Shown here in pieces: positions 7,396 through 19,009 of a stretch of 19,009 nucleotides of DNA; positions within the stretch are counted from its first letter, which is position 1; each line of letters opens with the position of its first letter. Under the pieces are notes generated by a model. That model saw nothing but the letters and a program-made list of their open reading frames with translations. It searched no databases and was not told the DNA's origin. The DNA comes from an uncultured Deinococcales bacterium (GTDB taxonomy: Bacteria > Deinococcota > Deinococci > Deinococcales > JAAFIG01), in the NCBI GenBank assembly GCA_964244895.1, contig CAXTKV010000094.1, forward strand, positions 1 to 19,009, in the 5' to 3' direction. Both the position numbers and the translations under genes were made by a program.

Positions 7396-8202
7396 ATGAA
7401 TGAGCTGTACCTCAACGGCGCGACCATCATGACCACCCCCACGCCGCGCCAACTCGAGGTCGCGCTTCTGGCGGGCTTCACGGGTTTGGAGGTTCGTACC
7501 GCGAGGCTGTGCGGCCCGGAGAATGCACAGGAACTCAAAGAAACCCTCGATGCCGTCGAGTCCAGCGGCGCGAAAATCCTCAACATCGCCGATCTGGCGC
7601 TGCACACCAGGCCGGACGGCATCGTGGATCAGAAGCGGCTCGAGGCGGAACTGCCGGAAATCCTCGACCTGACCAACGCGCTCGGTACGCCGTACCTGGG
7701 GATCGTGCCGGTGCCCGCCGACGGCGTCAGCTTTGAACAGGTTCTGCCCTCCATGCGGGACGCGCTGGCCTACTGCCTGGAACAGGCCAGGCCGCGAGGC
7801 ATCAGGCTCGGCTTCGAGTTCCTGGGCTTCGCCAACGACCCCATCAACACGGCGGCCAAATGCGTCAGGCTGCTCGAGACCCTGCCCGAGATCGGTTTCG
7901 TGCCCGATTCGTGCCACGTCTACGCATCGCACAGCCATTTTTCAGAGATTCCCGCCGACCGCATCCCGTTCGTGCATTTCAACGATTGCGCCAGACCGCC
8001 ATCCTTCGAGATTCGGGACGGCGACCGCGTGCTGCCCGGAGACGGACGGATTCCGTTGCGCAGCTACCTGGCGGAACTGCGCGCTGGCGGATTCACCGGC
8101 CCGATCAGCCTCGAGACCTTCACGCCCAGCCTGTGGGCCGAAGATCCCGCGCAACTCGCGGTGCGCGCCTTCAAGCAGCTTCAGGCCATCGTCAACGCGT
8201 GA
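7396..8202 (+). CDS. Sugar phosphate isomerase/epimerase TIM barrel, IolI-like inosose isomerase
   Basis: Metal-binding motifs GFEFLG, DSCH, VHFND, DRVLPGDG, SLETF; first gene of the iol cluster. Confidence 0.8.
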   Translation: MNELYLNGATIMTTPTPRQLEVALLAGFTGLEVRTARLCGPENAQELKETLDAVESSGAKILNIADLALHTRPDGIVDQKRLEAELPEILDLTNALGTPYLGIVPVPADGVSFEQVLPSMRDALAYCLEQARPRGIRLGFEFLGFANDPINTAAKCVRLLETLPEIGFVPDSCHVYASHSHFSEIPADRIPFVHFNDCARPPSFEIRDGDRVLPGDGRIPLRSYLAELRAGGFTGPISLETFTPSLWAEDPAQLAVRAFKQLQAIVNA

Positions 8203-8230
8203 CCAAAATGTGTAAGAGAAAGGATCGGGC

Positions 8231-10111
8231 ATGAACACCATTCGACTCACCGTCGGGCAGGCCGTCGTGCGTTACCTGGCGAGCCAGTACGTCGAACGCG
8301 ACGGAACCGAACAGCGCTTCATCGCGGGCGTCTGGGGTATCTTCGGTCACGGCAACACCGCGGGCATCGGGCAGGCCTTAGAGGAATACGGCGATGGCCT
8401 GGGATTGCGCCACTACCGTCCGCAGAACGAGCAGGCGATGGTGCACACCGCCGCCGCCTACGCCAAGCACCTCAACCGATTGGGCACCTACGCCTGCGCG
8501 ACCAGCATCGGCCCCGGCGCGACCAACATGGTCACGGGCGCGGCGCTGGCCACGATCAACCGATTGCCGGTGTTGTTGCTGCCGTCCGATTACTTCGCCA
8601 ACCATTTCCCCGATCCGGTGCTGCAACAACTCGAGCACCCGTCCGAACGGGACGCGAGCGTCAACGATGCCTTCCGCAGCGTGTCGCGCTACTTCGACCG
8701 GATTTCAAGGCCCGAGCAGATCATCTCGAGTCTGCCCGAAGCCTTCCGCGTCCTGACCGATCCCGCCGAAACGGGCGCGGTCACGCTCAGTTTGTGCGAG
8801 GACGTGCAGACCGAAGCCTACGATTACCCGGTGGCGCTGTTCGAGCGCCGCGTCTGGCGCGTGCGCCGCCCCGTACCGGAACCCGAACTGATCGCGGAGG
8901 CGGCGCGTTTGATTCGCGCCGCCAAGAACCCGTTGATCGTGGCGGGCGGCGGCGTGACCTACTCCGGTGCCAACGCGGAACTCGAGCGGCTGGTGTCCGC
9001 TACGGGCATCGCCGTGGCGGAGACGCAGGCCAGCAAGGGCGTCCTGCCGTGGGATCACGCGCAGAACCTCGGGCTGGTCGGCACGCTCGGCACGACGGCG
9101 GCCAACCGGCTGGCGCGGGACGCCGATCTGGTGATCGCCATCGGCACGCGGTTGGCGGACTTCCCGACGGCCTCGAAGACCGCCTTCAGGAACCCCGACC
9201 TGAAGGTCATCGGCATCAACGTCGTGCCGATGGACGCGTACAAGTTCGGTGCGCTGCCCGTCGTGGCGGACGCCAGACGCGCGTTGCCCGCGTTGATCGA
9301 GGCGCTATCCGGTCACGCCGTCTCGAGCGAGTACCGCGCGCAGGTCGGCATCTGGAAGACCGAATGGGACGGCATTGTGGACGAATTGCGAGCCGTCAAG
9401 GAACCCGGCAACCTGGCGCAGGCCGAAGTCATCGGCATGGTCAACCAGGCGGCGGGCGGTCGCGGCGTGGTGATCTGCGCGGCGGGCAGCATGCCGGGCG
9501 ACCTGCCGAAACTCTGGCGCTCAGATGACCCGAAAAGTTACCACCTCGAGTACGGCTATTCCTGCATGGGCTACGAGATTCCCGCCGGGCTGGGCGTCAA
9601 GCTGGCCGAACCCGAGCGCGAGGTCTACGTCATGATCGGCGACGGCACGTACCTGATGATGAACTCGGAGATCGTGACCGCCGTGCAGGAGGGCTTGAAA
9701 CCGATCGTGATCGTGGTGGACAACCACGGCTACCAGAGCATCCACAGTCTGCAACGCAGCCAGGGCACGCCGCATTTCGGGCTGGAGTTGCGCTTCCGCG
9801 AGGAGAACGGTCGGCACGACGGGCCGTTCGTGCCGGTCAACTTTGCGATGCACGCCGAAGCCATGGGTGCGCGAGCCTGGAGCGCCACCACTGAGGCCGA
9901 GTTCCGCGCCGCGCTGGACGGCGCGAAAAAATCCGATCGCATCTCCGTGATTCACGTTCTGGTCGATCCCGAAAAACGCGTCGGCGGGTTTGAAAGCTGG
10001 TGGGACGCACCACCCGCCGCCGTATCCGGTGAAGCCAGCGTGCAGGAAGCCCGAGCCAAATACGAGGAGAACCTCGAGCATCAGCGCAAGTACGTCAGGG
10101 TCACAAAATGA
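8231..10111 (+). CDS. iolD: 3D-(3,5/4)-trihydroxycyclohexane-1,2-dione acylhydrolase (ThDP-dependent)
   Basis: IRLTVGQA, GIFGHGN, TSIGPGATN, PDPVLQQLE, YHLEYGYSCMGYEI, GDGTYLMM...DN ThDP motif, SWWD. Confidence 0.95.
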   Translation: MNTIRLTVGQAVVRYLASQYVERDGTEQRFIAGVWGIFGHGNTAGIGQALEEYGDGLGLRHYRPQNEQAMVHTAAAYAKHLNRLGTYACATSIGPGATNMVTGAALATINRLPVLLLPSDYFANHFPDPVLQQLEHPSERDASVNDAFRSVSRYFDRISRPEQIISSLPEAFRVLTDPAETGAVTLSLCEDVQTEAYDYPVALFERRVWRVRRPVPEPELIAEAARLIRAAKNPLIVAGGGVTYSGANAELERLVSATGIAVAETQASKGVLPWDHAQNLGLVGTLGTTAANRLARDADLVIAIGTRLADFPTASKTAFRNPDLKVIGINVVPMDAYKFGALPVVADARRALPALIEALSGHAVSSEYRAQVGIWKTEWDGIVDELRAVKEPGNLAQAEVIGMVNQAAGGRGVVICAAGSMPGDLPKLWRSDDPKSYHLEYGYSCMGYEIPAGLGVKLAEPEREVYVMIGDGTYLMMNSEIVTAVQEGLKPIVIVVDNHGYQSIHSLQRSQGTPHFGLELRFREENGRHDGPFVPVNFAMHAEAMGARAWSATTEAEFRAALDGAKKSDRISVIHVLVDPEKRVGGFESWWDAPPAAVSGEASVQEARAKYEENLEHQRKYVRVTK

Positions 10112-10126
10112 TTTCGCGTGTCACGA

Positions 10127-10214
10127 AAAACACCGTGCTGGACGCTGTTCTTGAGAGTACAAAAGACACTGTCCTGGACGGTGTTCCTAAAATCCTGACT
10201 TTTGAAAACACTGT
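10127..10214. repeat. Pair of 25-bp palindromic intergenic repeats plus half-site
   Basis: 10127-10151 AAAACACCGT-GCTGG-ACGCTGTTCT; 10163-10187 AAGACACTGT-CCTGG-ACGGTGTTCC; half-site AAAACACTGT at 10205-10214. Confidence 0.85.
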
Positions 10215-10223
10215 GAGGTACGC

Positions 10224-11150
10224 ATGATTCGTTTCGGCAACGCGCCGTGCTCGTGGGGCACGATCGAGGGCATCGGCTCGAGCATCCCTTACGCGCAGAT
10301 GCTCGACGAGTTGAAAGCTTCGGGCTACGAGGGCACGGAACTCGGGGATTTCGGTTACATGCCGACCGACGCGAGCGCCCTGAAACGCGAACTCGAGGCG
10401 CGATCCTTGACGATGCTCGGCGCGTACGAGGGCGTCTACCTGCGCGATGCCAGCACCCACGCGGACGGCGAGGCGCGCGTGCTGCGGAACGCGCGGTTAT
10501 TGAAAGCCGTCGCCTCGAGTGATCCCGACTCGCAACCCTTCGTGGTGCTGGCCGACGACCACTCAAAGGATCCGGTACGTTTTCAGAACGCCGGACGGAT
10601 CGCGCCCGAGATGATGCTGTCCGACGCCGACTGGCAGACCTTCGCGGTGGGCGCGAACCGCATCGCTCGAGCCGTCAAAGACGAGACGGGTTTGAAGGTC
10701 GTGTTCCACCACCACTGCGCCGGGTACGTCGAAACCCCCGACGAGATCGCTCGATTGCTCGAGCTGACCGACCCGGAACTGATCGGTCTGGTTTTTGACA
10801 CCGGTCATTACCTTTACGGTTCCGGCACGAACGAGGCTGACATCGTGCTGGACGGCCTGAACCGCTTCAAAAATCGGATCTGGTACGTGCATTTCAAGGA
10901 CTGCCAGCCGGAAGTCGCCAGCCGCGCCCGACGCGAGCATTTCAACTACAACCAATCCATCGGCGCGGGCGTGTTCTGCGAACTCGGAGCCGGTGTCGTG
11001 CCGTTCCAAAGCGTGCTCGGCTGGTTGAACGCCACCGATTACGCGGGATGGATCACGATCGAACAGGACGTGCTGCCCGGCATGGGCGAACCCCGCGAGA
11101 GCGCCCAGCGCAACCGCGAGTACATCGCCAGGATCGCGGGTGAATCGTGA
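10224..11150 (+). CDS. iolE: myo-inosose-2 dehydratase
   Basis: GNAPCSWG, GYEGTELG, FHHHCAGYVET, FDTGH, VHFKD, FCELGAG, IEQD; located between iolD and iolC. Confidence 0.85.
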   Translation: MIRFGNAPCSWGTIEGIGSSIPYAQMLDELKASGYEGTELGDFGYMPTDASALKRELEARSLTMLGAYEGVYLRDASTHADGEARVLRNARLLKAVASSDPDSQPFVVLADDHSKDPVRFQNAGRIAPEMMLSDADWQTFAVGANRIARAVKDETGLKVVFHHHCAGYVETPDEIARLLELTDPELIGLVFDTGHYLYGSGTNEADIVLDGLNRFKNRIWYVHFKDCQPEVASRARREHFNYNQSIGAGVFCELGAGVVPFQSVLGWLNATDYAGWITIEQDVLPGMGEPRESAQRNREYIARIAGES

Positions 11151-11172
11151 ATTCGACGCGCCCGACCGCACC

Positions 11173-11222
11173 AGAACACCGTCTGGGACGCGAATTTGAC
11201 CACGCGTCCCAGACGGTGTTCT
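11173..11222. repeat. Two repeat units forming a perfect 20-bp inverted repeat (REPIN-like hairpin)
   Basis: AGAACACCGTCTGGGACGCG (11173-11192), 10-nt loop, CGCGTCCCAGACGGTGTTCT (11203-11222), ending in CTCGAG. Confidence 0.9.
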
Positions 11223-11269
11223 CGAGGGTCGACCCGAAGTCTCCCCTGCTCGAGACGCCTTCCCGATCT

Positions 11270-11304
11270 TCCTCGCGGCTCGAGGCTCACGGCTCGCGGC
11301 TGCC
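11270..11304 (+). repeat. Degenerate heptamer tandem repeat
   Basis: TCCTCGC GGCTCGA GGCTCAC GGCTCGC GGCTGCC. Confidence 0.75.
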
Positions 11305-11322
11305 CTCTGTGGTGATCCCCTC

Positions 11323-12348
11323 GTGAGCTTCACGCACGATCTGGTCACGCTCGGACGCTCGAGCATCGACCTGTACTCGAACGACATCGGCCAGCCCTTC
11401 GTGAACGTCAAAAGTTTCGGCGCGTACCTGGGTGGCAGCCCGTTGAACATCGCGGTCGGCGCGCGGCGCTTGGGTTTGCGGGTCGCACTTTTAACGGCGG
11501 TCGGTCAGGATCAGACCGGGGACTTCATCCTGCACGGCCTGAAGCGCGAGGGCGTGGACACGCGCTTCATCCCCGTCAAGGGTGACGCCCGCACCAGCGC
11601 GGTCGTGCTGGGCATCGAGCCGCCGGACAAGTTCCCGATCACCTTCTACCGGGAAAACGCGGCGGACATCCAGTTCAGCATCGACGATGCCATCGCCGCG
11701 CCGATCCAGACGACCCGAGCGCTCCAGGTGTCCGGCACGGCGCTCGCGAAGGAACCCGCGCGCAGCGCGACCTTCTTCGCGGCGGAACGCGCCAAAGCAG
11801 CCGGTGCGAGCGTCTACCTGGACATCGACTTCCGCGCCAACCAGTGGCACGACCCGCGCGCCTTCGGCGTCAACCTGCGCGCGCTCCTGCCGATGGTGGA
11901 CGTGGCCTTCGGCACGGAAGAAGAAATCAACGCCGCCATGCTGCGCGATCCGTCCGACATCACGATCCGCGACAGCCAGATCACCGCGCCGGAAATCAGG
12001 GGCGACGTGAAAGCCAATACGGACGCGCTCTTGGAGCGCCTGCCCGCCCACGGTGCGCTGGTCGTCAAGAGCGGCGCGAACGGCGCGACCGTCCACGCCA
12101 AAACACCCACTGGCCTCGAGACGATTCACGCGCCCGGATTTCGGGTCGAAGTTCTGTCCGTCCTGGGCGCGGGCGACGCGTTCGCGGCGGGGTTCATCTT
12201 CGGGCGCTTGCAGGGCTGGGACTGGTTCAAGAGCGCCCGCATGGGCAACGCCTGCGGCGCAATCGTCGTGACGCGCATCGGGTGCGCGGATTTCGCGCCG
12301 TACCTCGATGAGACGCTCGAGTTCATCGCCTCGCACGGAGGGTTCTGA
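11323..12348 (+). CDS. iolC: 5-dehydro-2-deoxygluconokinase (PfkB family)
   Basis: LGRSSIDLY, YLGGSPLNIAVGARRLG, LDIDFR, VLGAGDAFAAGF, NACGAIVVTR.GC. Confidence 0.95.
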   Translation: MSFTHDLVTLGRSSIDLYSNDIGQPFVNVKSFGAYLGGSPLNIAVGARRLGLRVALLTAVGQDQTGDFILHGLKREGVDTRFIPVKGDARTSAVVLGIEPPDKFPITFYRENAADIQFSIDDAIAAPIQTTRALQVSGTALAKEPARSATFFAAERAKAAGASVYLDIDFRANQWHDPRAFGVNLRALLPMVDVAFGTEEEINAAMLRDPSDITIRDSQITAPEIRGDVKANTDALLERLPAHGALVVKSGANGATVHAKTPTGLETIHAPGFRVEVLSVLGAGDAFAAGFIFGRLQGWDWFKSARMGNACGAIVVTRIGCADFAPYLDETLEFIASHGGF

Positions 12349-12434
12349 TGGTCACTCGCTCGAGATGCGAGGCATCGTTCCCGACGGAGGGCGAATACAA
12401 GATTCACTACGGGAACGGTTGAGAGGATCGCGTA

Positions 12435-12494
12435 AGAACACCGTCCCACACGGTGTTCTCGAGAATCAAAATCGTGTGTGCTAGACGGTATCCC
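12435..12494. repeat. Pair of 25-bp palindromic intergenic repeats
   Basis: Perfect 12435-12459 AGAACACCGT-CCCAC-ACGGTGTTCT; degenerate 12470-12494 AATCGTGTGT-GCTAG-ACGGTATCCC; a weak unit also at 12369-12393. Confidence 0.8.
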
Positions 12495-12529
12495 CATTTC
12501 GATTCATTCAGAAAACTGAGGTGGCAGAC

Positions 12530-13555
12530 ATGAAAACGTTCGGTGTGGCCTTGCTGGGCGCGGGAAGAATGGGCGTGGAGCACGCCAGAAACCTGATCGG
12601 GATTTCGTCGGCGCGCTTGCTGGCGGTCGGTGATCCGTTCCTCGAGAATGCCGAAAAAGCCGTGGCCTCGACGCGGGCGGAGAAAGCCTACGCCGATGCG
12701 GAAGCCGCCATTCACCATCCCGGCGTGGATGCCGTGGTGATCGTCACGCCGACGAACACGCACGCGGATTTGATCGAGGTCGCGGCGCGTGCCGGCAAAG
12801 CGATTTTCTGCGAGAAGCCCGTGGCGCTCGAGTTGGAACGCACCGTGCGGGCGCTCGAGGTCGTGCGCCAGAACAACGTGCCATTCCAGATCGGTTTCAA
12901 TCGGCGTTTCGATCCGCCGTACGCGCTGGCCAAACGCAAACTTCAGGCGGGAGAACTGGGCGAGATCGAGCAGTTCATTTCCGTGATGCGAGACCCGTCG
13001 CCGCCGCCGTTGGAGTACCTGAAAATTTCGGGCGGCATGTTCATCGATCAGTCGATTCACGAACTGGACTGCGCGCGCTTCTTGGTCGGCGAGGTCGAGG
13101 AATTGAGCGCCTGGGGCGCGGCGTTGGTCGACCCGGCCATCGGTGAACTGGGCGACGTGGACACGGGCATGATCTCGTTGCGATTCAAGAACGGGGCGCT
13201 CGGCGTGATTCAGAATTCCAGGCGTTCGACCTTCGGCTACGACGTTCGCACGGAAGTCTTCGGTTCAAAGGGCAAGCTCGTCATGGATGCCACGCCGAAA
13301 ACGCCCCTGACGCAGTACGGCGCTGGTTCCACTTCGCGCGAGGGGCGGCTCGAGTCGGATCATTTTCACTTCTTCATGGATCGGTTCAAGGACGCGTACC
13401 GGCTCGAGATCGAGGCGTTTTTCAGTTGCCTCGAGACGGGTGCATCGACCACGCCGAGCGCGGTGGATGCGCTGGAATCCTTGCGGTTGGGCGTGGCGGC
13501 GACGCTCAGTTTCCGCGAGAAACGTTCCGTCAAACTCTCGGAAGTCACGGCGTGA
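12530..13555 (+). CDS. iolG: Inositol 2-dehydrogenase (Gfo/Idh/MocA family)
   Basis: GAGRMG, CEKP, QIGFNRRFD, SGGMFIDQSIHELD, GYDVRTEVFG; SD GAGGTG favours ATG 12530 over GTG 12521. Confidence 0.88.
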   Translation: MKTFGVALLGAGRMGVEHARNLIGISSARLLAVGDPFLENAEKAVASTRAEKAYADAEAAIHHPGVDAVVIVTPTNTHADLIEVAARAGKAIFCEKPVALELERTVRALEVVRQNNVPFQIGFNRRFDPPYALAKRKLQAGELGEIEQFISVMRDPSPPPLEYLKISGGMFIDQSIHELDCARFLVGEVEELSAWGAALVDPAIGELGDVDTGMISLRFKNGALGVIQNSRRSTFGYDVRTEVFGSKGKLVMDATPKTPLTQYGAGSTSREGRLESDHFHFFMDRFKDAYRLEIEAFFSCLETGASTTPSAVDALESLRLGVAATLSFREKRSVKLSEVTA

Positions 13556-14559
13556 AAGACACCATCGGCGTGGCTCTGATCGGCGCGGGCCGCATGGGTC
13601 TGACGCACGCGCGAACCATCGCGGGTCTCTCGAGCGCGCGCGTTCTGGTCGTGGCGGATGCCGTGCCGGGGGCCGCAGAGCGCGGTCGGGCCGCCTGCCG
13701 CGCGGAACGCGCCGTCACGGATTTCATGGAGGCGATCAACGCGCCCGGTGTGGACGCCGTCGTGATCGTCACGACGACCGACACGCACGCACACCTGATC
13801 CAGAAGGCGGCGCGGGCGGGCAAGGCCGTCTGGTGCGAGAAACCCATCGCGTTGACGCTGGCGGACACGCGAGAAACCATCGCGGTGCTCGAGGAAACCG
13901 GCGTGCCGTGCCAGATCGGGTTCATGCGCCGTTTCGATCCGGGCTACGCCAGGGCGAAGGAGATGATCGAGCACGGCGAACTGGGCGCGCTCGAAACCTT
14001 CCGGGCGCTCGGGCGCGACACGTACCTGCCCAACCCAAGTTTTCTTGCAGGCAGCGGCGGCACCTTCCTGGACATGAGCGTCCACGATTTCGACCTGGCG
14101 CGCTTCCTGATCGGCGAGGTCGAGGAAGTCAGCGCCTGGGGCGCAGTCAGAATTGACCAGATGTTCGCGGATGCCGACGACGTGGACACGACCGTCTGCA
14201 TGTTGCGCTTTTCAAACGGTGTCCTGGGCGTGGTGGAAAACTCCAGGAAATCGAACTGGGGTTACGACATCCGCACGGAAATCGCGGGTTCCAGATCGAA
14301 GGTCGTGATCGAGGCGGGCCGCAAGACGCCGATCCAGACCTTCACGAATTTCAGCGTCCAAAACGATGTCTTTGAGCTTTTCCCGGATCGTTTCGAGCAG
14401 GCGTACCGCCTGCAACTCGAGGCGTTCTTCGAAGCGTTGCTGAAGGGCAAGAAACCCAGCCCCGGCCCCCAGGATGCGCTCGAGACGCTGCGCTTGTCCT
14501 TGGCCGCGCGGCAAAGCTGGCGCGAGGGTCGGCCCGTCAACGTCAAGGAGGTCATATGA
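13552..14559 (+). CDS. Second Gfo/Idh/MocA inositol dehydrogenase paralogue
   Basis: GAGRMG, CEKP, QIGFMRRFD, SGGTFLDMSVHDFD, GYDIRTEI; GTG 13552 overlaps the upstream TGA. Confidence 0.88.
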   Translation: MKDTIGVALIGAGRMGLTHARTIAGLSSARVLVVADAVPGAAERGRAACRAERAVTDFMEAINAPGVDAVVIVTTTDTHAHLIQKAARAGKAVWCEKPIALTLADTRETIAVLEETGVPCQIGFMRRFDPGYARAKEMIEHGELGALETFRALGRDTYLPNPSFLAGSGGTFLDMSVHDFDLARFLIGEVEEVSAWGAVRIDQMFADADDVDTTVCMLRFSNGVLGVVENSRKSNWGYDIRTEIAGSRSKVVIEAGRKTPIQTFTNFSVQNDVFELFPDRFEQAYRLQLEAFFEALLKGKKPSPGPQDALETLRLSLAARQSWREGRPVNVKEVI

Positions 14560-15377
14560 AACTTCATTTTCCCGCCAAGTCCGGTACGGGCGTGCTGCAC
14601 GAGGTCAATCCGCACATCGCGGGCTGGCAGTACCTGTCTTTCAAGGTCGTAGCGCTGTCCGCCGGGCAGACGCACCACGGGAACACGGGCGGCGATGAGG
14701 AGATGATCGTATTTCTTTCGGGGTCGGCTCGAGCCAAGGCTGGCGGGCAGGATTTCGAGATCGTGGGCAGAAAAAGCGTCTTCGACGGTCTGCCGCACGA
14801 ACTGTATTTACCGCCTGGAACGGCGTATTCCGTCACGGCAACGACCGATCTGGAGTTCTCGACGGGCGGCGCACCCGCCGCCGGGAAATTCCCGATCCGC
14901 CTGTACGGCCCCAAAGATTTCACCGTGGAAATGCGCGGCGGCGCGAACGTCTCGCGGGCGGTCACGCACCTGACGGGCGCTGGCGTGGACGTGGAAAAAC
15001 TATTTCTGTTCGAGGTCTACACGCCATCAGGCAACTGGTCGGGCTTCCCTCCGCACCGCCACGACGGACGCATGGGCAGCAGCTACCTGGAAGAAACGTA
15101 TTACTTCAAGATCGCGCCAACGGACGGCTTCGGCGTGTTCCGCGTCTACACCGGCGACACCGATCTGGACGAGGTCATGATCACCAGGGACGGCGATCTG
15201 GTGATCGTGCCGGAGGGCTACCATCCGGGGGCGACCGCGCCTGGATCGAATCTGTACTTCCTGAATTACCTGGCGGGCGAAAACCGCGAATACACCGTCG
15301 TCAACGATCCCGCCTTCGATTGGGTCGCGCGCGACTGGGCGGGCAAACCGATTCAATTGCCGTTCAAGGCGGAGTGA
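14556..15377 (+). CDS. iolB: 5-deoxy-glucuronate isomerase (KduI/IolB family)
   Basis: EVYTPSGNWSGFPPHRHD, LEETYYF, VPEGYHP, YFLNYLAG; SD AAGGAGG; ATGA overlap. Confidence 0.95.
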   Translation: MKLHFPAKSGTGVLHEVNPHIAGWQYLSFKVVALSAGQTHHGNTGGDEEMIVFLSGSARAKAGGQDFEIVGRKSVFDGLPHELYLPPGTAYSVTATTDLEFSTGGAPAAGKFPIRLYGPKDFTVEMRGGANVSRAVTHLTGAGVDVEKLFLFEVYTPSGNWSGFPPHRHDGRMGSSYLEETYYFKIAPTDGFGVFRVYTGDTDLDEVMITRDGDLVIVPEGYHPGATAPGSNLYFLNYLAGENREYTVVNDPAFDWVARDWAGKPIQLPFKAE

Positions 15378-16153
15378 ACAACGTGCGCACCGAGGAGCGC
15401 CGCACCGCGATTCTCGAATTGCTCGAGCGTCAAAACACCGTGCAGGTCGAGGAACTTTCACGGCAGTTCGAGGTGTCTCTGGTCACGATCCGAAAGGATC
15501 TGACCGACCTGGAATCGCGCGGGCTTTTGCGGCGCACGCACGGCGGCGCGACGCCCGCCCACAAGAGCCTCTGGAACCCGTCCTTCCGCGAGAAACTGCA
15601 CCTGCACGACGCCAGCAAGGACGCGATCGCGCACGCGGCCCTGGCGCACATCGAGGATGGCGACACGCTGATCCTGGATGCGGGTTCGACCACGCTGCAA
15701 CTGGCGCGCAAGCTCCGGGGGCGCTTTCAATCGTTGTTCGTGCTGACGAATTCCATGCCGATCGCGCTGGAACTTTCAGACACGCCCTTCGAGGTGCTGG
15801 TGCTGGGCGGTCAGATGCGCCACCACAGCATGGCCTTGATCGGCCCCGCTTCCGCCTTCGTCCTGGAGGCGTACCACGCGGACAAGGCGTTCATCGGTGC
15901 GACCGGCGTGTCGTTGGCGCAGGGGTACACCACGCCCAACCCGTTCGAGGCGCAGACGAAATCCGCGATGGTGCGCGCTGCGGATCGCGTGTTTGCGCTG
16001 GTCGATTCCAGCAAGCTGGGTCGGGCGACCCTGGCGAGCTTCGCGCCCTTAGAGGACGTGGAGGTACTGATCACGGACACGGATGCACCCCCGGATTTCC
16101 TGCGCGGGCTCGAGGCTCGCCGGATGGCGTTCGCGCTGGCGGGGAATCGTTGA
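15374..16153 (+). CDS. DeoR/GlpR-family transcriptional regulator (probable inositol operon repressor)
   Basis: ERRTAIL...VSLVTIRKDLTDLE...RTHGGA HTH; LDAGSTT, LTNS, DKAFIG, DSSK. Start GTG 15374 (GTGA overlap) or GTG 15383. Confidence 0.92.
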   Translation: MNNVRTEERRTAILELLERQNTVQVEELSRQFEVSLVTIRKDLTDLESRGLLRRTHGGATPAHKSLWNPSFREKLHLHDASKDAIAHAALAHIEDGDTLILDAGSTTLQLARKLRGRFQSLFVLTNSMPIALELSDTPFEVLVLGGQMRHHSMALIGPASAFVLEAYHADKAFIGATGVSLAQGYTTPNPFEAQTKSAMVRAADRVFALVDSSKLGRATLASFAPLEDVEVLITDTDAPPDFLRGLEARRMAFALAGNR

Positions 16154-16174
16154 ATGGTGGCTCGAGAACCCAGG

Positions 16175-16245
16175 CTTCTCGATGCTTGAGCATCGAGAAG
16201 ACCGTCCAGCACAATGTAAAGATTTCGCGTCCTGGACGGTTTTTC
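16175..16245. repeat. 26-bp palindrome followed by an inverted pair of 25-bp family repeats
   Basis: CTTCTCGATGCT-TG-AGCATCGAGAAG (16175-16200); units 16196-16220 AGAAGACCGT-CCAGC-ACAATGTAAA and 16221-16245 GATTTCGCGT-CCTGG-ACGGTTTTTC. Confidence 0.8.
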
Positions 16246-16290
16246 TTACAGCGGCCTCCGCAAAGGTTGACGCGCGAAAAACCTGGCTCA

Positions 16291-16321
16291 CGCGAGAGCA
16301 ACCTTCATGATTGCCCTCGCG
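16291..16321 (+). repeat. REP-like hairpin, second copy of the 619-644 element
   Basis: CGCGAGAGCAA-CCTTCATGA-TTGCCCTCGCG; core is 18/20 identical to 625-644. Confidence 0.6.
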
Positions 16322-16376
16322 TGAACCCGTTCTCGAGACTGACTGTTACGAGAAGTCTATTTTTGAAGATGCACTT

Positions 16377-16401
16377 GTGGGGGCGGGTCTGTGACCCGTT
16401 C
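16377..16401 (+). repeat. REP-like hairpin GTGG-GGGCGGGTC-TGT-GACCCGTTC
   Basis: GTAG-like tetranucleotide followed by a 9-bp stem with two G-T pairs and a 3-nt loop. Confidence 0.45.
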
Positions 16402-16412
16402 AGAACGGCAAC

Positions 16413-16937
16413 TCACCAACTTCTGGCTTCGGCCTGTCGTCGCGGTCGGACGCGCCACCAGGCTCGAGCGCCCAGCACGAACAAGGCCAGCATGGGGATC
16501 GCGGCCAGCGCGTAAATCGGGATGCTGGGTGGCCCTGCGGGGCGCTCGAGCACCTTGATCGGCAGTCGGGCTTTGCCCTGACCATTGATCGTGATCTCGA
16601 GTTGCCAGGTTCCCTGTTGCGGGAACGCGACGGAATCGAATCCCCAGACGCTGCGGTCGCGCGGGAAGCGCGGCAGGCGATCCATCGCCATGTAAGTTTC
16701 GCCGTTGGGCTGGATGAACTTGACCTCGCCGGTCTTCTCGGCGATTCCGCCTTCGGTGGAAAAAGTGAAATCGAGCGAGCGTTCGGCTCTGGGCGGGAAC
16801 TCCGTGAAGTTGACACTGACGGTTTGCGCGCCGATTTTGAGGGTTTCGGTGTGAACCATTTGGGCGGCTCGAGTCACGCTCAAAGATCCCGTCACAATCG
16901 GGCAGAACATCGCCAGAACGATCAGGATTCGTTTCAC
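16413..16937 (-). CDS. Exported beta-rich protein with signal peptide and C-terminal membrane anchor
   Basis: MKRILIVLAMFC signal-like start; Ig/YtkA-like strand GTWQLEITING; Pro-rich linker, TM IPIYALAAIPMLALFVLGA, Arg-rich tail; GTG overlaps the upstream stop (GTGA). Confidence 0.8.
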   Translation of the reverse strand: MKRILIVLAMFCPIVTGSLSVTRAAQMVHTETLKIGAQTVSVNFTEFPPRAERSLDFTFSTEGGIAEKTGEVKFIQPNGETYMAMDRLPRFPRDRSVWGFDSVAFPQQGTWQLEITINGQGKARLPIKVLERPAGPPSIPIYALAAIPMLALFVLGARAWWRVRPRRQAEARSW

Positions 16938-18025
16938 GCGCCCACCTCGGTTCGGGTGTCAATCGTCGGGTTGACGTGGCGCATGACCACGCCGAACTGC
17001 CAGCCCAGCCACGCGCCCACCGCTCCGATCAGTCCGGCGACGATCAACAAGTACCAGTTGCTCACGACATCGATCAGGCTCGAGTCGAGGTAAATCGTGA
17101 TTCCGCCCAGTGCGCCACCGATCAGCACGAGCGGCGCGACCCGCCAGCCTCTGGCCTTGCCGAAGGCCAAGAGCGCCGCCATCAGCAAGCCCGCCACCGG
17201 CGCGAGCACGGGCATGATCGAGGGGATCTGCGGGATGCCATCGGTGGTGTCTCGCAGGCCGTAGCCGAGAGAATCCGCGTAGGCTTTCGTGATGATCGGG
17301 AAGAGCCACCAGAACAACCACCTGAAGGCGGTGAAGGCCAGCATCACCCAGAGCGCCGCCCACGGTCGGCGCGTGACGGACGCGCTGAAAGCCATGCCGA
17401 GCGGCAGCAGGAGCGCGGGCAAGGCCAGGAGCGGGATGATCCAGCCCAGTTCGCTGGCGGTCGCCATGATGAACGGCAGGCTGAAGCCGAGCGCCACCGC
17501 GACGCCCACGACCGTCTCAGGGACGCGAGGTTTGCGACCGCTGGCGAAGATCAGCGCGCAGCCGACCGTGCTCATCACGTCGCTCAGGATCAAGCCGACG
17601 TGCGGTGGGGAACTCAGCACCGCGTCGAAACCGAAAACCGTGTGCCACCACTGGTCAAACACGCCGAACAGCAGGAATCCGAACGCGCCGAAACCCGCGA
17701 TCACGAAACCGACCGGCGCGTGAAAGCGTCCGCCCAGCACGGGAATCCAGTCGGCGCGCCGCACATCCCTGGCGACCTGCGAGCAGAGCAGCACGGTGCT
17801 CAGGCAGGCCGCTCCAGTCAGGGCCGCACCCGCGTACACGAACAGGTGCGGCAGCGTCCAGAAGGTGTCCGGGCCGACATCGCCGTGCCATTGCACGTCC
17901 CAGCTCAGGCCAAAGAAGGTCACGATCACGCCCAGGAGCGTCAGCCACGCACCGATGCGTTCAAAACGCCGCCACTCGAGCGGGGACAACCTGGGGCTTT
18001 GGGGTTTGTTCAAGGTCGCATTCAT
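16934..18025 (-). CDS. Uncharacterised ~10-TM membrane protein with two PmoC/AmoC-like Asp/His metal motifs
   Basis: About 10 hydrophobic segments; motifs DVQWHGDVGPDTFWTLPH and DQWWHTVFGFDAVLSSPPH; SD GAGGT upstream of ATG 18025. Confidence 0.85.
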   Translation of the reverse strand: MNATLNKPQSPRLSPLEWRRFERIGAWLTLLGVIVTFFGLSWDVQWHGDVGPDTFWTLPHLFVYAGAALTGAACLSTVLLCSQVARDVRRADWIPVLGGRFHAPVGFVIAGFGAFGFLLFGVFDQWWHTVFGFDAVLSSPPHVGLILSDVMSTVGCALIFASGRKPRVPETVVGVAVALGFSLPFIMATASELGWIIPLLALPALLLPLGMAFSASVTRRPWAALWVMLAFTAFRWLFWWLFPIITKAYADSLGYGLRDTTDGIPQIPSIMPVLAPVAGLLMAALLAFGKARGWRVAPLVLIGGALGGITIYLDSSLIDVVSNWYLLIVAGLIGAVGAWLGWQFGVVMRHVNPTIDTRTEVGA

Positions 18026-18187
18026 AAAAAACCTCAATTTCTGGGTCGATGCGCGAGGGGCGTTGCGATACATCGAGCGGAGGCCAGAAAAGCTGGGTGC
18101 TGGTCGATCAAATCTTGGGCCAAGCTCAATTCACCAGCGCTCGATCTTCACGTTGAGCTTTCACTTTTCACCTTCACCAACAAACGC

Positions 18188-19009
18188 TCAGGGTCGGACG
18201 GTGATGCCGCCGTTGCTGGTCTCGAGCATCAGGCTGGCGCTGGCGGAACCGTCTTTGGTGGCGGTGAACTCCGTCCTGTCCTGCTGGACGTTGAATCCGG
18301 GCATCTGAAGGCTCAATCCGCCGTTCGAGGTGCTGCCCTCGACGCGCACGCCGTCCGGCCCCGTCAGTCCGATGATCTCGATGGAACCGTTCGAGGTCGT
18401 GGCGGTGCTCGAGGATCGCGCCGGAAGCACGGCGCGATCCAGCACGATGCCGCTGTTCGAGGTTTCGGCCTGCACGCGCCCTTCCACGCGCTCCAGGCGA
18501 ATGCGTCCGTTCGAGGTGCTGGCGTTGACCTCGCCGCGCGCGCCGCGAACGTCGATGCCGCCGTTGCTGGTTTCCAGCATCAGGCTGGCCGCGAGCGTAT
18601 CCCTGGCCGTGATCGCGCCGTTCGAGGTGTTCGCCGTCAACTTGCGCGCCGCGCCGATCACCTCGATGGCTCCGTTGCTGGTCTCGAGCTTCAATTCCAG
18701 ATGCTCCGGCACGGTCATTTCGACATCGATCTTGCAGCTCCAGCAGTTCTGCACCAGCGTTTTTCCGGTGATCGCGAAGGTGCTGCCGCGCCGTTCGGTT
18801 TTGACTTCGACCTTGCCGCGTTTGGTAATGGTCAGCTTCGGCTCGCCACCGCTGGTGACGCGGATGTGACCGTTGAAGATGTCGATCCGGAACAATTCAA
18901 AAAGGCGATCATCAAACGTGAGGTGCGACGCGAATCTGACCTCGGTGGTCACTTGCTGAGCGACAAAGAAAAAGAGAAAAAAACTGCAGACACCGCGGCC
19001 ATGAATTAC
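18188..19009 (-). CDS. DUF4097-family beta-strand repeat protein; start uncertain, frame open to the window edge
   Basis: Eight xTSN(G/S) repeats, DVEMTVP motif; the frame stays open upstream of GTG 18952 through a hydrophobic FFLFFFVA stretch. Confidence 0.85.
   Translation of the reverse strand, partial: VIHGRGVCSFFLFFFVAQQVTTEVRFASHLTFDDRLFELFRIDIFNGHIRVTSGGEPKLTITKRGKVEVKTERRGSTFAITGKTLVQNCWSCKIDVEMTVPEHLELKLETSNGAIEVIGAARKLTANTSNGAITARDTLAASLMLETSNGGIDVRGARGEVNASTSNGRIRLERVEGRVQAETSNSGIVLDRAVLPARSSSTATTSNGSIEIIGLTGPDGVRVEGSTSNGGLSLQMPGFNVQQDRTEFTATKDGSASASLMLETSNGGITVRP

Follow-up and report, generated by a model that had tools for sequence, protein, structure and literature searches.

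A large and patchily distributed family of bacterial membrane proteins with two predicted metal sites akin to those of copper membrane monooxygenase subunit C

A two-gene membrane system was identified in the genome of an uncultured Deinococcales bacterium, on a stretch of 19,009 nucleotides (the window). Its larger product, referred to as the core, carries two Asp-His-His triads in its N-terminal half, and this half (residues 15-165) is judged from profile comparisons to be remotely homologous to the final four helices of PmoC/AmoC, subunit C of the copper membrane monooxygenases (CuMMOs). The second gene encodes a conserved partner. The family is large and patchy, and occurs in bacteria of several phyla. 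By analogy with pMMO and AMO, the core may be a copper-dependent, O2-activating, quinol-fed membrane enzyme for a lipophilic small molecule, a reading that we prefer while rating its probability somewhat below even. The features of the two genes are listed in Table 1.

Table 1. Features of the core and partner genes (positions in the window)
Feature	Position	Strand	Description
Core gene	16934..18025	(-)	363 aa; ten predicted membrane helices, with a PmoC/AmoC-like four-helix metal domain and a six-helix C-terminal domain
CuC-like triad D43/H47/H60 (D43-x3-H47-x12-H60), loop G51-x-D53	17846..17899	(-)	Aligned with AmoC 9cl6_C and PmoC 6cxh_C
CuD-like triad D124/H128/H142 (D124-x3-H128-x13-H142), loop G132-x-D134	17600..17656	(-)	In register with the N/H/H site of HmoC
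Two tandem helical-hairpin repeats, residues 15-165	17531..17983	(-)	Assigned by profile as remote homologue of the last four helices of CuMMO subunit C
Six-helix domain, residues 165-355	16961..17533	(-)	Moderate PmoA/AmoA profile match; best fold match to an ECF S-component
Ribosome-binding-like GAGG	18032..18035	(-)	6 nt before ATG 18025
Partner gene	16413..16937	(-)	174 aa; overlaps the core stop at GTGA; predicted to have a signal helix, a beta-sandwich (29-130) and a membrane helix at the C-terminus
Terminator-like 19-bp hairpin with T tail, 3' of the partner gene	16285..16327	(-)	Consensus match only

Core gene and metal-site motifs

When the core ORF was re-derived, both motifs were found exactly where the original prediction had placed them, with the same spacings and 81 residues apart. 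The two patterns co-occurred in 7 of 100,000 shuffles. The ligands named for Methylococcus capsulatus Bath PmoC, D156/H160/H173 for CuC and N227/H231/H245 for CuD, agree with the published ones (PMC11811604), and the equivalents in AMO are D134/H138/H151 and N205/H209/H223 (PMC12801151). A longer core ORF starting at ATG 18073 was considered unneeded, as the closest relatives are mostly 350-380 aa.

The AlphaFold2 model of the core, built on a 120-row alignment, was confident (pLDDT 93.8, pTM 0.91) and consisted of ten long helices. Each motif bridges a pair of helices in the model, as anticipated: D43 and H47 lie on helix 15-49 and H60 opens helix 58-85, while D124 and H128 lie on helix 105-131 and H142 opens helix 140-161. 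Lys and Arg are absent from both motif loops, whereas the alternating loops contain 2-4 of them when helix bounds are set by hand (one predicted outer loop has 2), which suggests that both triads are on the outer face. Together with the model helices and coevolving pairs, this positive-inside pattern predicts that the N-terminus is inside and that both triads sit at the outer face of the four-helix bundle.

Mean-field coevolution was computed from 344 rows (effective number 228). The top 45 pairs included pairs within the hairpins (36-66, 117-148, and 121-145) and pairs across the repeats (64-121, 64-145, 36-145, and 52-133), one turn from the ligands. These pairs fit converging triads and weakly support such an arrangement; any pair that involves position 52, 121, or 133 could instead stem from the split between subfamilies.

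Relationship to CuMMO subunits C and A

The original prediction had regarded the core as a distant relative of CuMMO subunit C, and for the N-terminal half this view is upheld by collinear profile matches that exceed every control. Subunit C is represented by the models PF04896 (Pfam), TIGR03078, and NF041641 and by the PDB chains 9cl6_C, 6cxh_C, 7s4l_C, and 9pxf_G. In hhalign comparisons, residues 15-165 matched CuMMO-C alignments built from M. chubuense HmoC and its relatives with P of 91-96% and with both sites in register. Reversed templates gave less than 2%, and none of 120 column or block shuffles reached the real score. The first motif was the region covered by the best two PDB matches of the broad family profile, AmoC (E 0.0029) and PmoC (E 0.016). 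The narrow alignment of close homologues (A1) reached a P of only 25-28% against CuMMO-C, and its profile had 0 matches in the PDB.

An HMM of the N-terminal half ranked all 36 CuMMO-C sequences above 353 control membrane ORFs. With the reciprocal CuMMO-C HMM, 57 of 120 family members outscored the best control membrane ORF, though the core protein itself (P0001) scored 6.8 bits, below that control at 10.0. Single-sequence searches of P0001 against Pfam, NCBIfam, and the PDB found no match, including the AmoC/PmoC models PF04896, TIGR03078, and NF041641. Among the 120 cores, AmoC models were the most frequent families matched (Pfam, 12/120; NCBIfam, 14/120 and 11/120; best E ~0.001). The sole ORF of this genome matched by the CuMMO-C profile was a paralogue of the core on contig C91 (E 0.0043). 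PF04896 had 0 matches in this genome, but no control genome gave a match either.

Residues 15-165 are a clear tandem internal duplication: repeat 1 matched repeat 2 with P of 97.4% (E 1e-11). The same comparison did not detect an internal repeat in CuMMO C (P 0.4%), in contrast to the clear repeat of the family. Repeat 1 matched the CuC hairpin at 95.7% and repeat 2 the CuD hairpin at 34.5%; the crosswise values were 0.2% and 7.8%.

Like PmoC, AmoC, and HmoC, the family has two triads in the same order and with the same spacing; the helices that carry them correspond to the final four of subunit C, and W-H, the loop R/P-D-T, T-P-x-H, and P-x-H are common to both. Unlike PmoC/AmoC, it has no counterpart of the first two helices of subunit C; archaeal AmoC also has four helices (bioRxiv 10.64898/2026.08.31.748207). 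At the second site, all 120 rows have Asp where bacterial PmoC/AmoC have Asn. The sites are separated by 75-88 residues in nearly all rows, compared with 71-74 in CuMMO C, and position 52 is Pro, not Arg, in the subfamily of this protein (55/120). In a quick unrooted tree of 88 rows, which omitted archaeal AmoC, the 32 CuMMO-C rows were set apart from the 56 family rows by a long branch. The GPD subfamily, to which this gene belongs, formed one side of a branch (96) in the same tree.

The original prediction had described the remainder of the protein as an extension by about six helices; a six-helix domain is indeed present, but it is not featureless. With the broad alignment, residues 165-355 matched CuMMO-A profiles collinearly (P 68-82%). 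The score of 41.8 exceeded those of 22 control membrane families (at most 24.6 in either direction), of reversed templates, and of 120 shuffles, and the cross pairs (N-terminal half against CuMMO-A, C-terminal half against CuMMO-C) gave nil. The match depends on the alignment, being nil for A1, 4-6% for 89 GRD members, and 42-70% for the pooled set. A 51-row profile of the C-terminal half found no PmoA in the PDB, and in the HMM rank test 1 of 31 PmoA sequences exceeded the best control and 6 of 31 the 99th percentile. The likeness to PmoA/AmoA/HmoA (PF02461) is strongest at R-x-P-x-x-A-T and P-x6-A-x3-D, whereas the DW-x-FW-x-DWKD motif and the long outer insertion of PmoA are absent from this protein. 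Another subfamily has an E-Y/F-E/D motif at about the place of DW-x-FW-x-DWKD. In contrast to PmoA, the A-like part shares a chain with the C-like part, and its likeness to PmoA received no support from the fold search. One ORF of 514 aa on a single short contig (P0338) encodes both subunit C and subunit A of a canonical CuMMO, as either a real fusion or an assembly error.

The core model was confident, but a structural resemblance to pMMO was not confirmed by whole-model fold searches. Foldseek with the whole core model found no match at E 0.001 in the PDB and BFVD. No pMMO or AMO chain was listed by Foldseek or among the best 50 of VIA-align, which searched 48,161 chains, an absence that excludes nothing with whole models. 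For residues ~15-165, VIA-align gave four-helix bundles with Z up to 10.5 and cytochrome b561 with 9.4, under the noise level of the tool for helical proteins. For residues 164-363, the ECF S-component 5edl came first (Z 10.7, rmsd 5.0, 172 aligned residues), followed by RibU and a pantothenate S subunit (Z 6.8), all under the noise level for helical bundles. Compared with the S-components (PDB 5edl, 5kbw, and 4rfs; rmsd 4-5 Å), the domain here follows a metal four-helix bundle within one chain. Receptors, too, can have the S-component fold (PMC11109136); the main text of that paper contains no mention of monooxygenase, methane, ammonia, or copper.

Conservation and distribution of the family

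A word-seeded search scored 8000 candidates and found 99 relatives, all of them lacking a Pfam label. The family profile of 94 rows, from which six fragments and fusions were left out, matched 2157 clusters (50% identity) at E up to 0.001 and 817 at E up to 1e-10. The six candidate ligands, whose conservation had been called for as a check, were invariant in 94 of 94 rows of the close set and in 120 of 120 chosen full-length rows (20-66% identity), an invariance that is partly ascertained because the homologues were collected through these motifs. Both spacings were exact in 118 of the 120 full-length rows, in which W46, G51, G132, and D134 were likewise invariant. Beside each Asp-His-His site lies a further invariant Asp of the loop, D53 and D134, respectively. 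When fragments were included (151 rows), 0-2 ungapped rows per ligand column departed from the expected residue.

The closest subfamily has named carriers among the Deinococcales, actinomycetes, and Chloroflexota. Members were found in 44 of 301 sampled genomes of the phylum of this bacterium (the sample takes in unpublished G252), including 9 of 9 in its family, and in 37 of 301 from the phylum of a Chloroflexia genome (including unpublished G567). Genomes carry up to four paralogues, and this one has three members. The second member (L083; G000:C91:15954-16916) is of the GRD type and has a divergent TetR gene; downstream of it are two genes with the signal, beta, and anchor architecture, one of which matches FixH weakly and is predicted to start with His in its mature form. 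The third (L084; G000:C71:14265-15299) is more distant; it retains both triads and has additional helices at the N and C termini, and the partner-profile search found no partner gene at its locus.

Weak matches to the family profile (E 1e-9 to 1e-14, residues ~10-260) were seen in G058, G093, G147, G149, G169, G170, and others, which may represent a more distant subfamily. Members broken into two or three pieces by frameshift or stops were observed in L100 (G247:C270), G182:C77, and G593:C15. None of 48 pattern matches was confirmed as a viral member of the family, no RNA holder of the family was found among the entries listed, and a search of the ESM Atlas with the core returned unnamed clusters only. 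No published description of the family was found in a literature search made without subscription journals or bioRxiv supplements.

Partner gene and genomic context

The original prediction had treated the core as an orphan, possibly stand-alone protein. This is not supported, because the overlapping gene at 16937-16413 is a conserved partner that is adjacent to or fused with the core in 78 of 80 loci (35 adjacent, 4 fused, of which L044 in part only, and 39 with starts within 12 nt of the core stop; unpublished L020 is included). Of the two exceptions, the sequence of L012 stops with the core gene, and at L062 the His-rich gene takes the place of the partner. A partner homologue was also detected in 30 of another 52 loci; most of the misses belong to another subfamily, whose downstream genes share the architecture and have weak YtkA/FixH matches. 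This gene coupling and the fusions suggest that the partner binds the core.

The partner is modelled as a beta-sandwich flanked by two helices (pLDDT 89.9). Its best fold matches were CrdA (Z 10.7, rmsd 2.4, 95 residues), alpha-2-macroglobulin (10.4), PmoD (Z 9.2, rmsd 2.7, 96 residues), and StcE (9.2), and the leading Atlas hits were CopC and YtkA. The fold is thus like that of PmoD/AmoD (6cpd), CrdA (9ll2), and YtkA/FixH-type domains, but alpha-2-macroglobulin scores as high, which points to a generic fold. Unlike PmoD, CrdA, and YtkA, the partners have no conserved copper ligand set across subfamilies. His29, W98, and D101 were invariant in 41 of 41 close partners, whereas His29 was kept in 4 of 18 partners from a second phylum (L201 included); such poor retention is more in keeping with a structural subunit than with a chaperone devoted to copper loading. 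The partner was also considered as a PmoB/AmoB homologue, and the PmoB profile gave no support; the mature N-terminal His, a feature of the PmoB CuB site, is absent from the partner of this genome. No CopC, CopD, or YcnI Pfam domain was found in the 120 cores or the 41 partners, and other partners had only weak YtkA/FixH matches.

No pmoA or pmoB had been noticed in the window, and this observation extends to the whole genome (91% complete). No separate PmoA gene was found there, and for PmoB the best match to PF04744 had an E of 0.43, elsewhere in the genome. Judged by its sequence, the core is therefore neither a canonical CuMMO nor a member of the CuMMO family as defined, having no subunit B and no match to a curated model.

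The actinomycete operon contains two additional genes, encoding a His-rich secreted protein with a weak YtkA match (61/80 loci) and a small M[PT]xMGH protein (51/80). Its first gene (L042:1623-3023 and equivalents) encodes a conserved secreted protein that has a membrane hairpin in its middle and in which the motifs H...HLHP / GH...HAH recur. The His-rich secreted protein was not found in the Deinococcales genome. Regulators beside the core were mostly of the TetR, two-component, or MarR type and differed between lineages. Among 98 scanned neighbours of 21 loci, there was no cop, cox, sco, or copper-regulator family, no ECF module gene (EcfT, EcfA), and no conserved reductase, catabolic, or recurrent enzyme gene. 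Four hand-picked loci of other subfamilies were located beside metal genes: a metal repressor and HMA at L103, a P-type ATPase at L116, CopD-YtkA at L215, and heavy-metal ATPases at L081. Plasmid NC_018022.1 of M. chubuense NBB4 carries both hmoCAB (L086:4036-7099) and a distant family member (L081:11947-13416), ~165 kb apart, the latter near heavy-metal ATPases and regulators.

In the sample from the phylum of the Chloroflexia genome, a COX1-family gene was present in 37 of 37 carriers and in 209 of 264 non-carriers (246 of 301 overall; Fisher p 5e-4), an association that is confounded by kinship and genome size (unpublished G330, G462, G465, G558, and G567 are included). No sigma-70-like promoter was found in 16100-19009, and visual inspection of 9 upstream regions revealed no common operator. 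A DUF4097 (LiaG-like) repeat protein is encoded at 18188-18952 (-), 162 nt upstream of the core on the same strand. The region 7396-16153 of the window contains what we take to be a myo-inositol catabolism cluster (iolD, iolE, iolC, two dehydrogenases, iolB, and a DeoR regulator), of which the regulator was the sole gene scanned. A link of the core to this cluster or to the DUF4097 gene was rejected, as neither is among the conserved neighbours.

Possible function

The CuC/CuD pocket has been described as pMMO's active site (PMC11725843), and the proposed pMMO/AMO active site is also treated in bioRxiv 10.64898/2026.08.31.748207. We prefer the enzymatic reading of the core because the pocket homologous to this site is its only invariant part, paralogues are many, and the regulation looks ligand-based rather than copper-based. 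The presence of COX1 in all 37 carriers was also counted in its favor, and fits a copper module too. By analogy with pMMO/AMO, one or two Cu ions would be bound in the CuC/CuD-type pocket, a membrane quinol would give electrons, and O2 would be activated at the pocket. Binding of substrate or quinol, in place of subunit A, would fall to the six-helix C-terminal domain. The partner, which would correspond in position to PmoD and not to PmoB, would likely cap or stabilise the site and may help load copper; pmoD/amoD comes after the CAB genes (PMC13058606). Metal loading in actinobacteria would involve two further proteins, YtkA-like or His-rich. The core is unlikely to act on methane or ammonia as growth substrates. 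Against an oxygen-activating enzyme stand the absence of pMMO/AMO chains from the fold searches, the alignment dependence of the PmoA match, the lack of a PmoB-like gene and of a conserved reductase or catabolic neighbour, the loci beside copper-handling genes, and the occurrence of zinc at the CuC site in some pMMO crystals (PMC11811604).

The main alternative, and a serious one though less likely than the enzyme, is that the two genes serve in taking up or delivering copper, as YcnJ-YcnI or CopC-CopD do; the triads would bind Cu at the outer face, the S-component-like C-terminal half would carry it or hand it on, and YtkA/CrdA-like partners would collect it. This would account for the best fold matches, namely the ECF S-component for the C-terminal half (5edl, Z 10.7) and the copper resistance protein CrdA for the partner (Z 10.7), as well as for the CopC and YtkA leads, the His-rich (61/80) and M[PT]xMGH (51/80) genes, and the metal genes at L103, L116, L215, and L081. 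YtkA domains support CuA assembly in Bacillus (PMC13344008), and the co-occurrence with COX1 is equally compatible with such a module. However, the 5edl match, at rmsd 5.0, falls below the stated noise level for helical bundles, the partner His is not conserved, and the copper-context loci were picked by eye, the 98 neighbours of 21 loci having yielded no copper regulator, cop, sco, or cox and no ECF module gene. In addition, two complete triads homologous to a catalytic pocket would seem to exceed the needs of a carrier. A metal-dependent membrane enzyme of other chemistry on the same ancestral two-hairpin scaffold, such as a Zn/Fe hydrolase or a non-oxygenase redox enzyme, is clearly unlikely. 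Asp-His-His with a further Asp is a ligand set suited to Zn/Fe, and both sites of the family have Asp-His-His together with an invariant loop Asp (D53, D134). The zinc found at CuC and the long branch between the family and CuMMO C in the quick tree point the same way, but the partners and extra operon genes resemble copper proteins and the carriers track COX1.

That the metal site reads a redox, metal, or ligand state without turnover, as a membrane sensor or envelope-stress component, is very unlikely: the S-component fold does occur in receptors (PMC11109136), two-component systems are adjacent in several lineages, and a DUF4097/LiaG-like gene lies upstream in the window, but the core model has no cytoplasmic output domain, the adjacent regulators vary by lineage, and DUF4097 is not among the conserved neighbours. 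Convergence of the motifs on a generic four-helix bundle unrelated to PmoC would explain why fold searches gave generic bundles and no pMMO chain and why P0001 alone matches no AmoC model; it is nevertheless extremely improbable, given that the reciprocal collinear profile matches beat all controls and that the CuMMO-C HMM picks exactly one ORF in this genome, a family paralogue. 

The preferred reading of the core as a copper-dependent enzyme extends to a wider picture, held tentatively and with the chances on the whole against it, in which the family would be a widespread deep branch of the CuMMO superfamily. A single chain would join the catalytic C core to an A-like domain, the partner would be PmoD-like, PmoB would be lacking, and the family would keep the ancestral two-fold Asp-His-His symmetry behind the CuC/CuD pocket and act as a copper oxygenase in ordinary heterotrophs. 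The divergent CuMMOs of Ca. Angelarchaeales are likewise very divergent CuMMO-like proteins outside the known methane and ammonia oxidisers; they have separate C, A, X, and B genes (PMC9038741), in contrast to the single chain without B of this family.

Implications

There is continuing debate over the copper site at which methane and ammonia are oxidised and over whether CuC and CuD work singly or jointly (PMC11725843, PMC12801151, bioRxiv 10.64898/2026.08.31.748207), in part since the activity of pMMO and AMO is lost once they leave their membranes. A system of two genes that shares this pocket, lacks PmoB, and is present in cultured bacteria (Deinococcus, Amycolatopsis, and Lentzea) would allow mutagenesis and spectroscopy of the pocket alone and could serve as a simpler model of the debated active site. 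The detectable internal repeat points to an origin of the pocket by duplication of one helical hairpin. Should the family prove active, the copper oxygenases would gain a large class that has gone unrecognised; should it carry copper instead, it would place a CuC/CuD-type pocket in a non-catalytic role.
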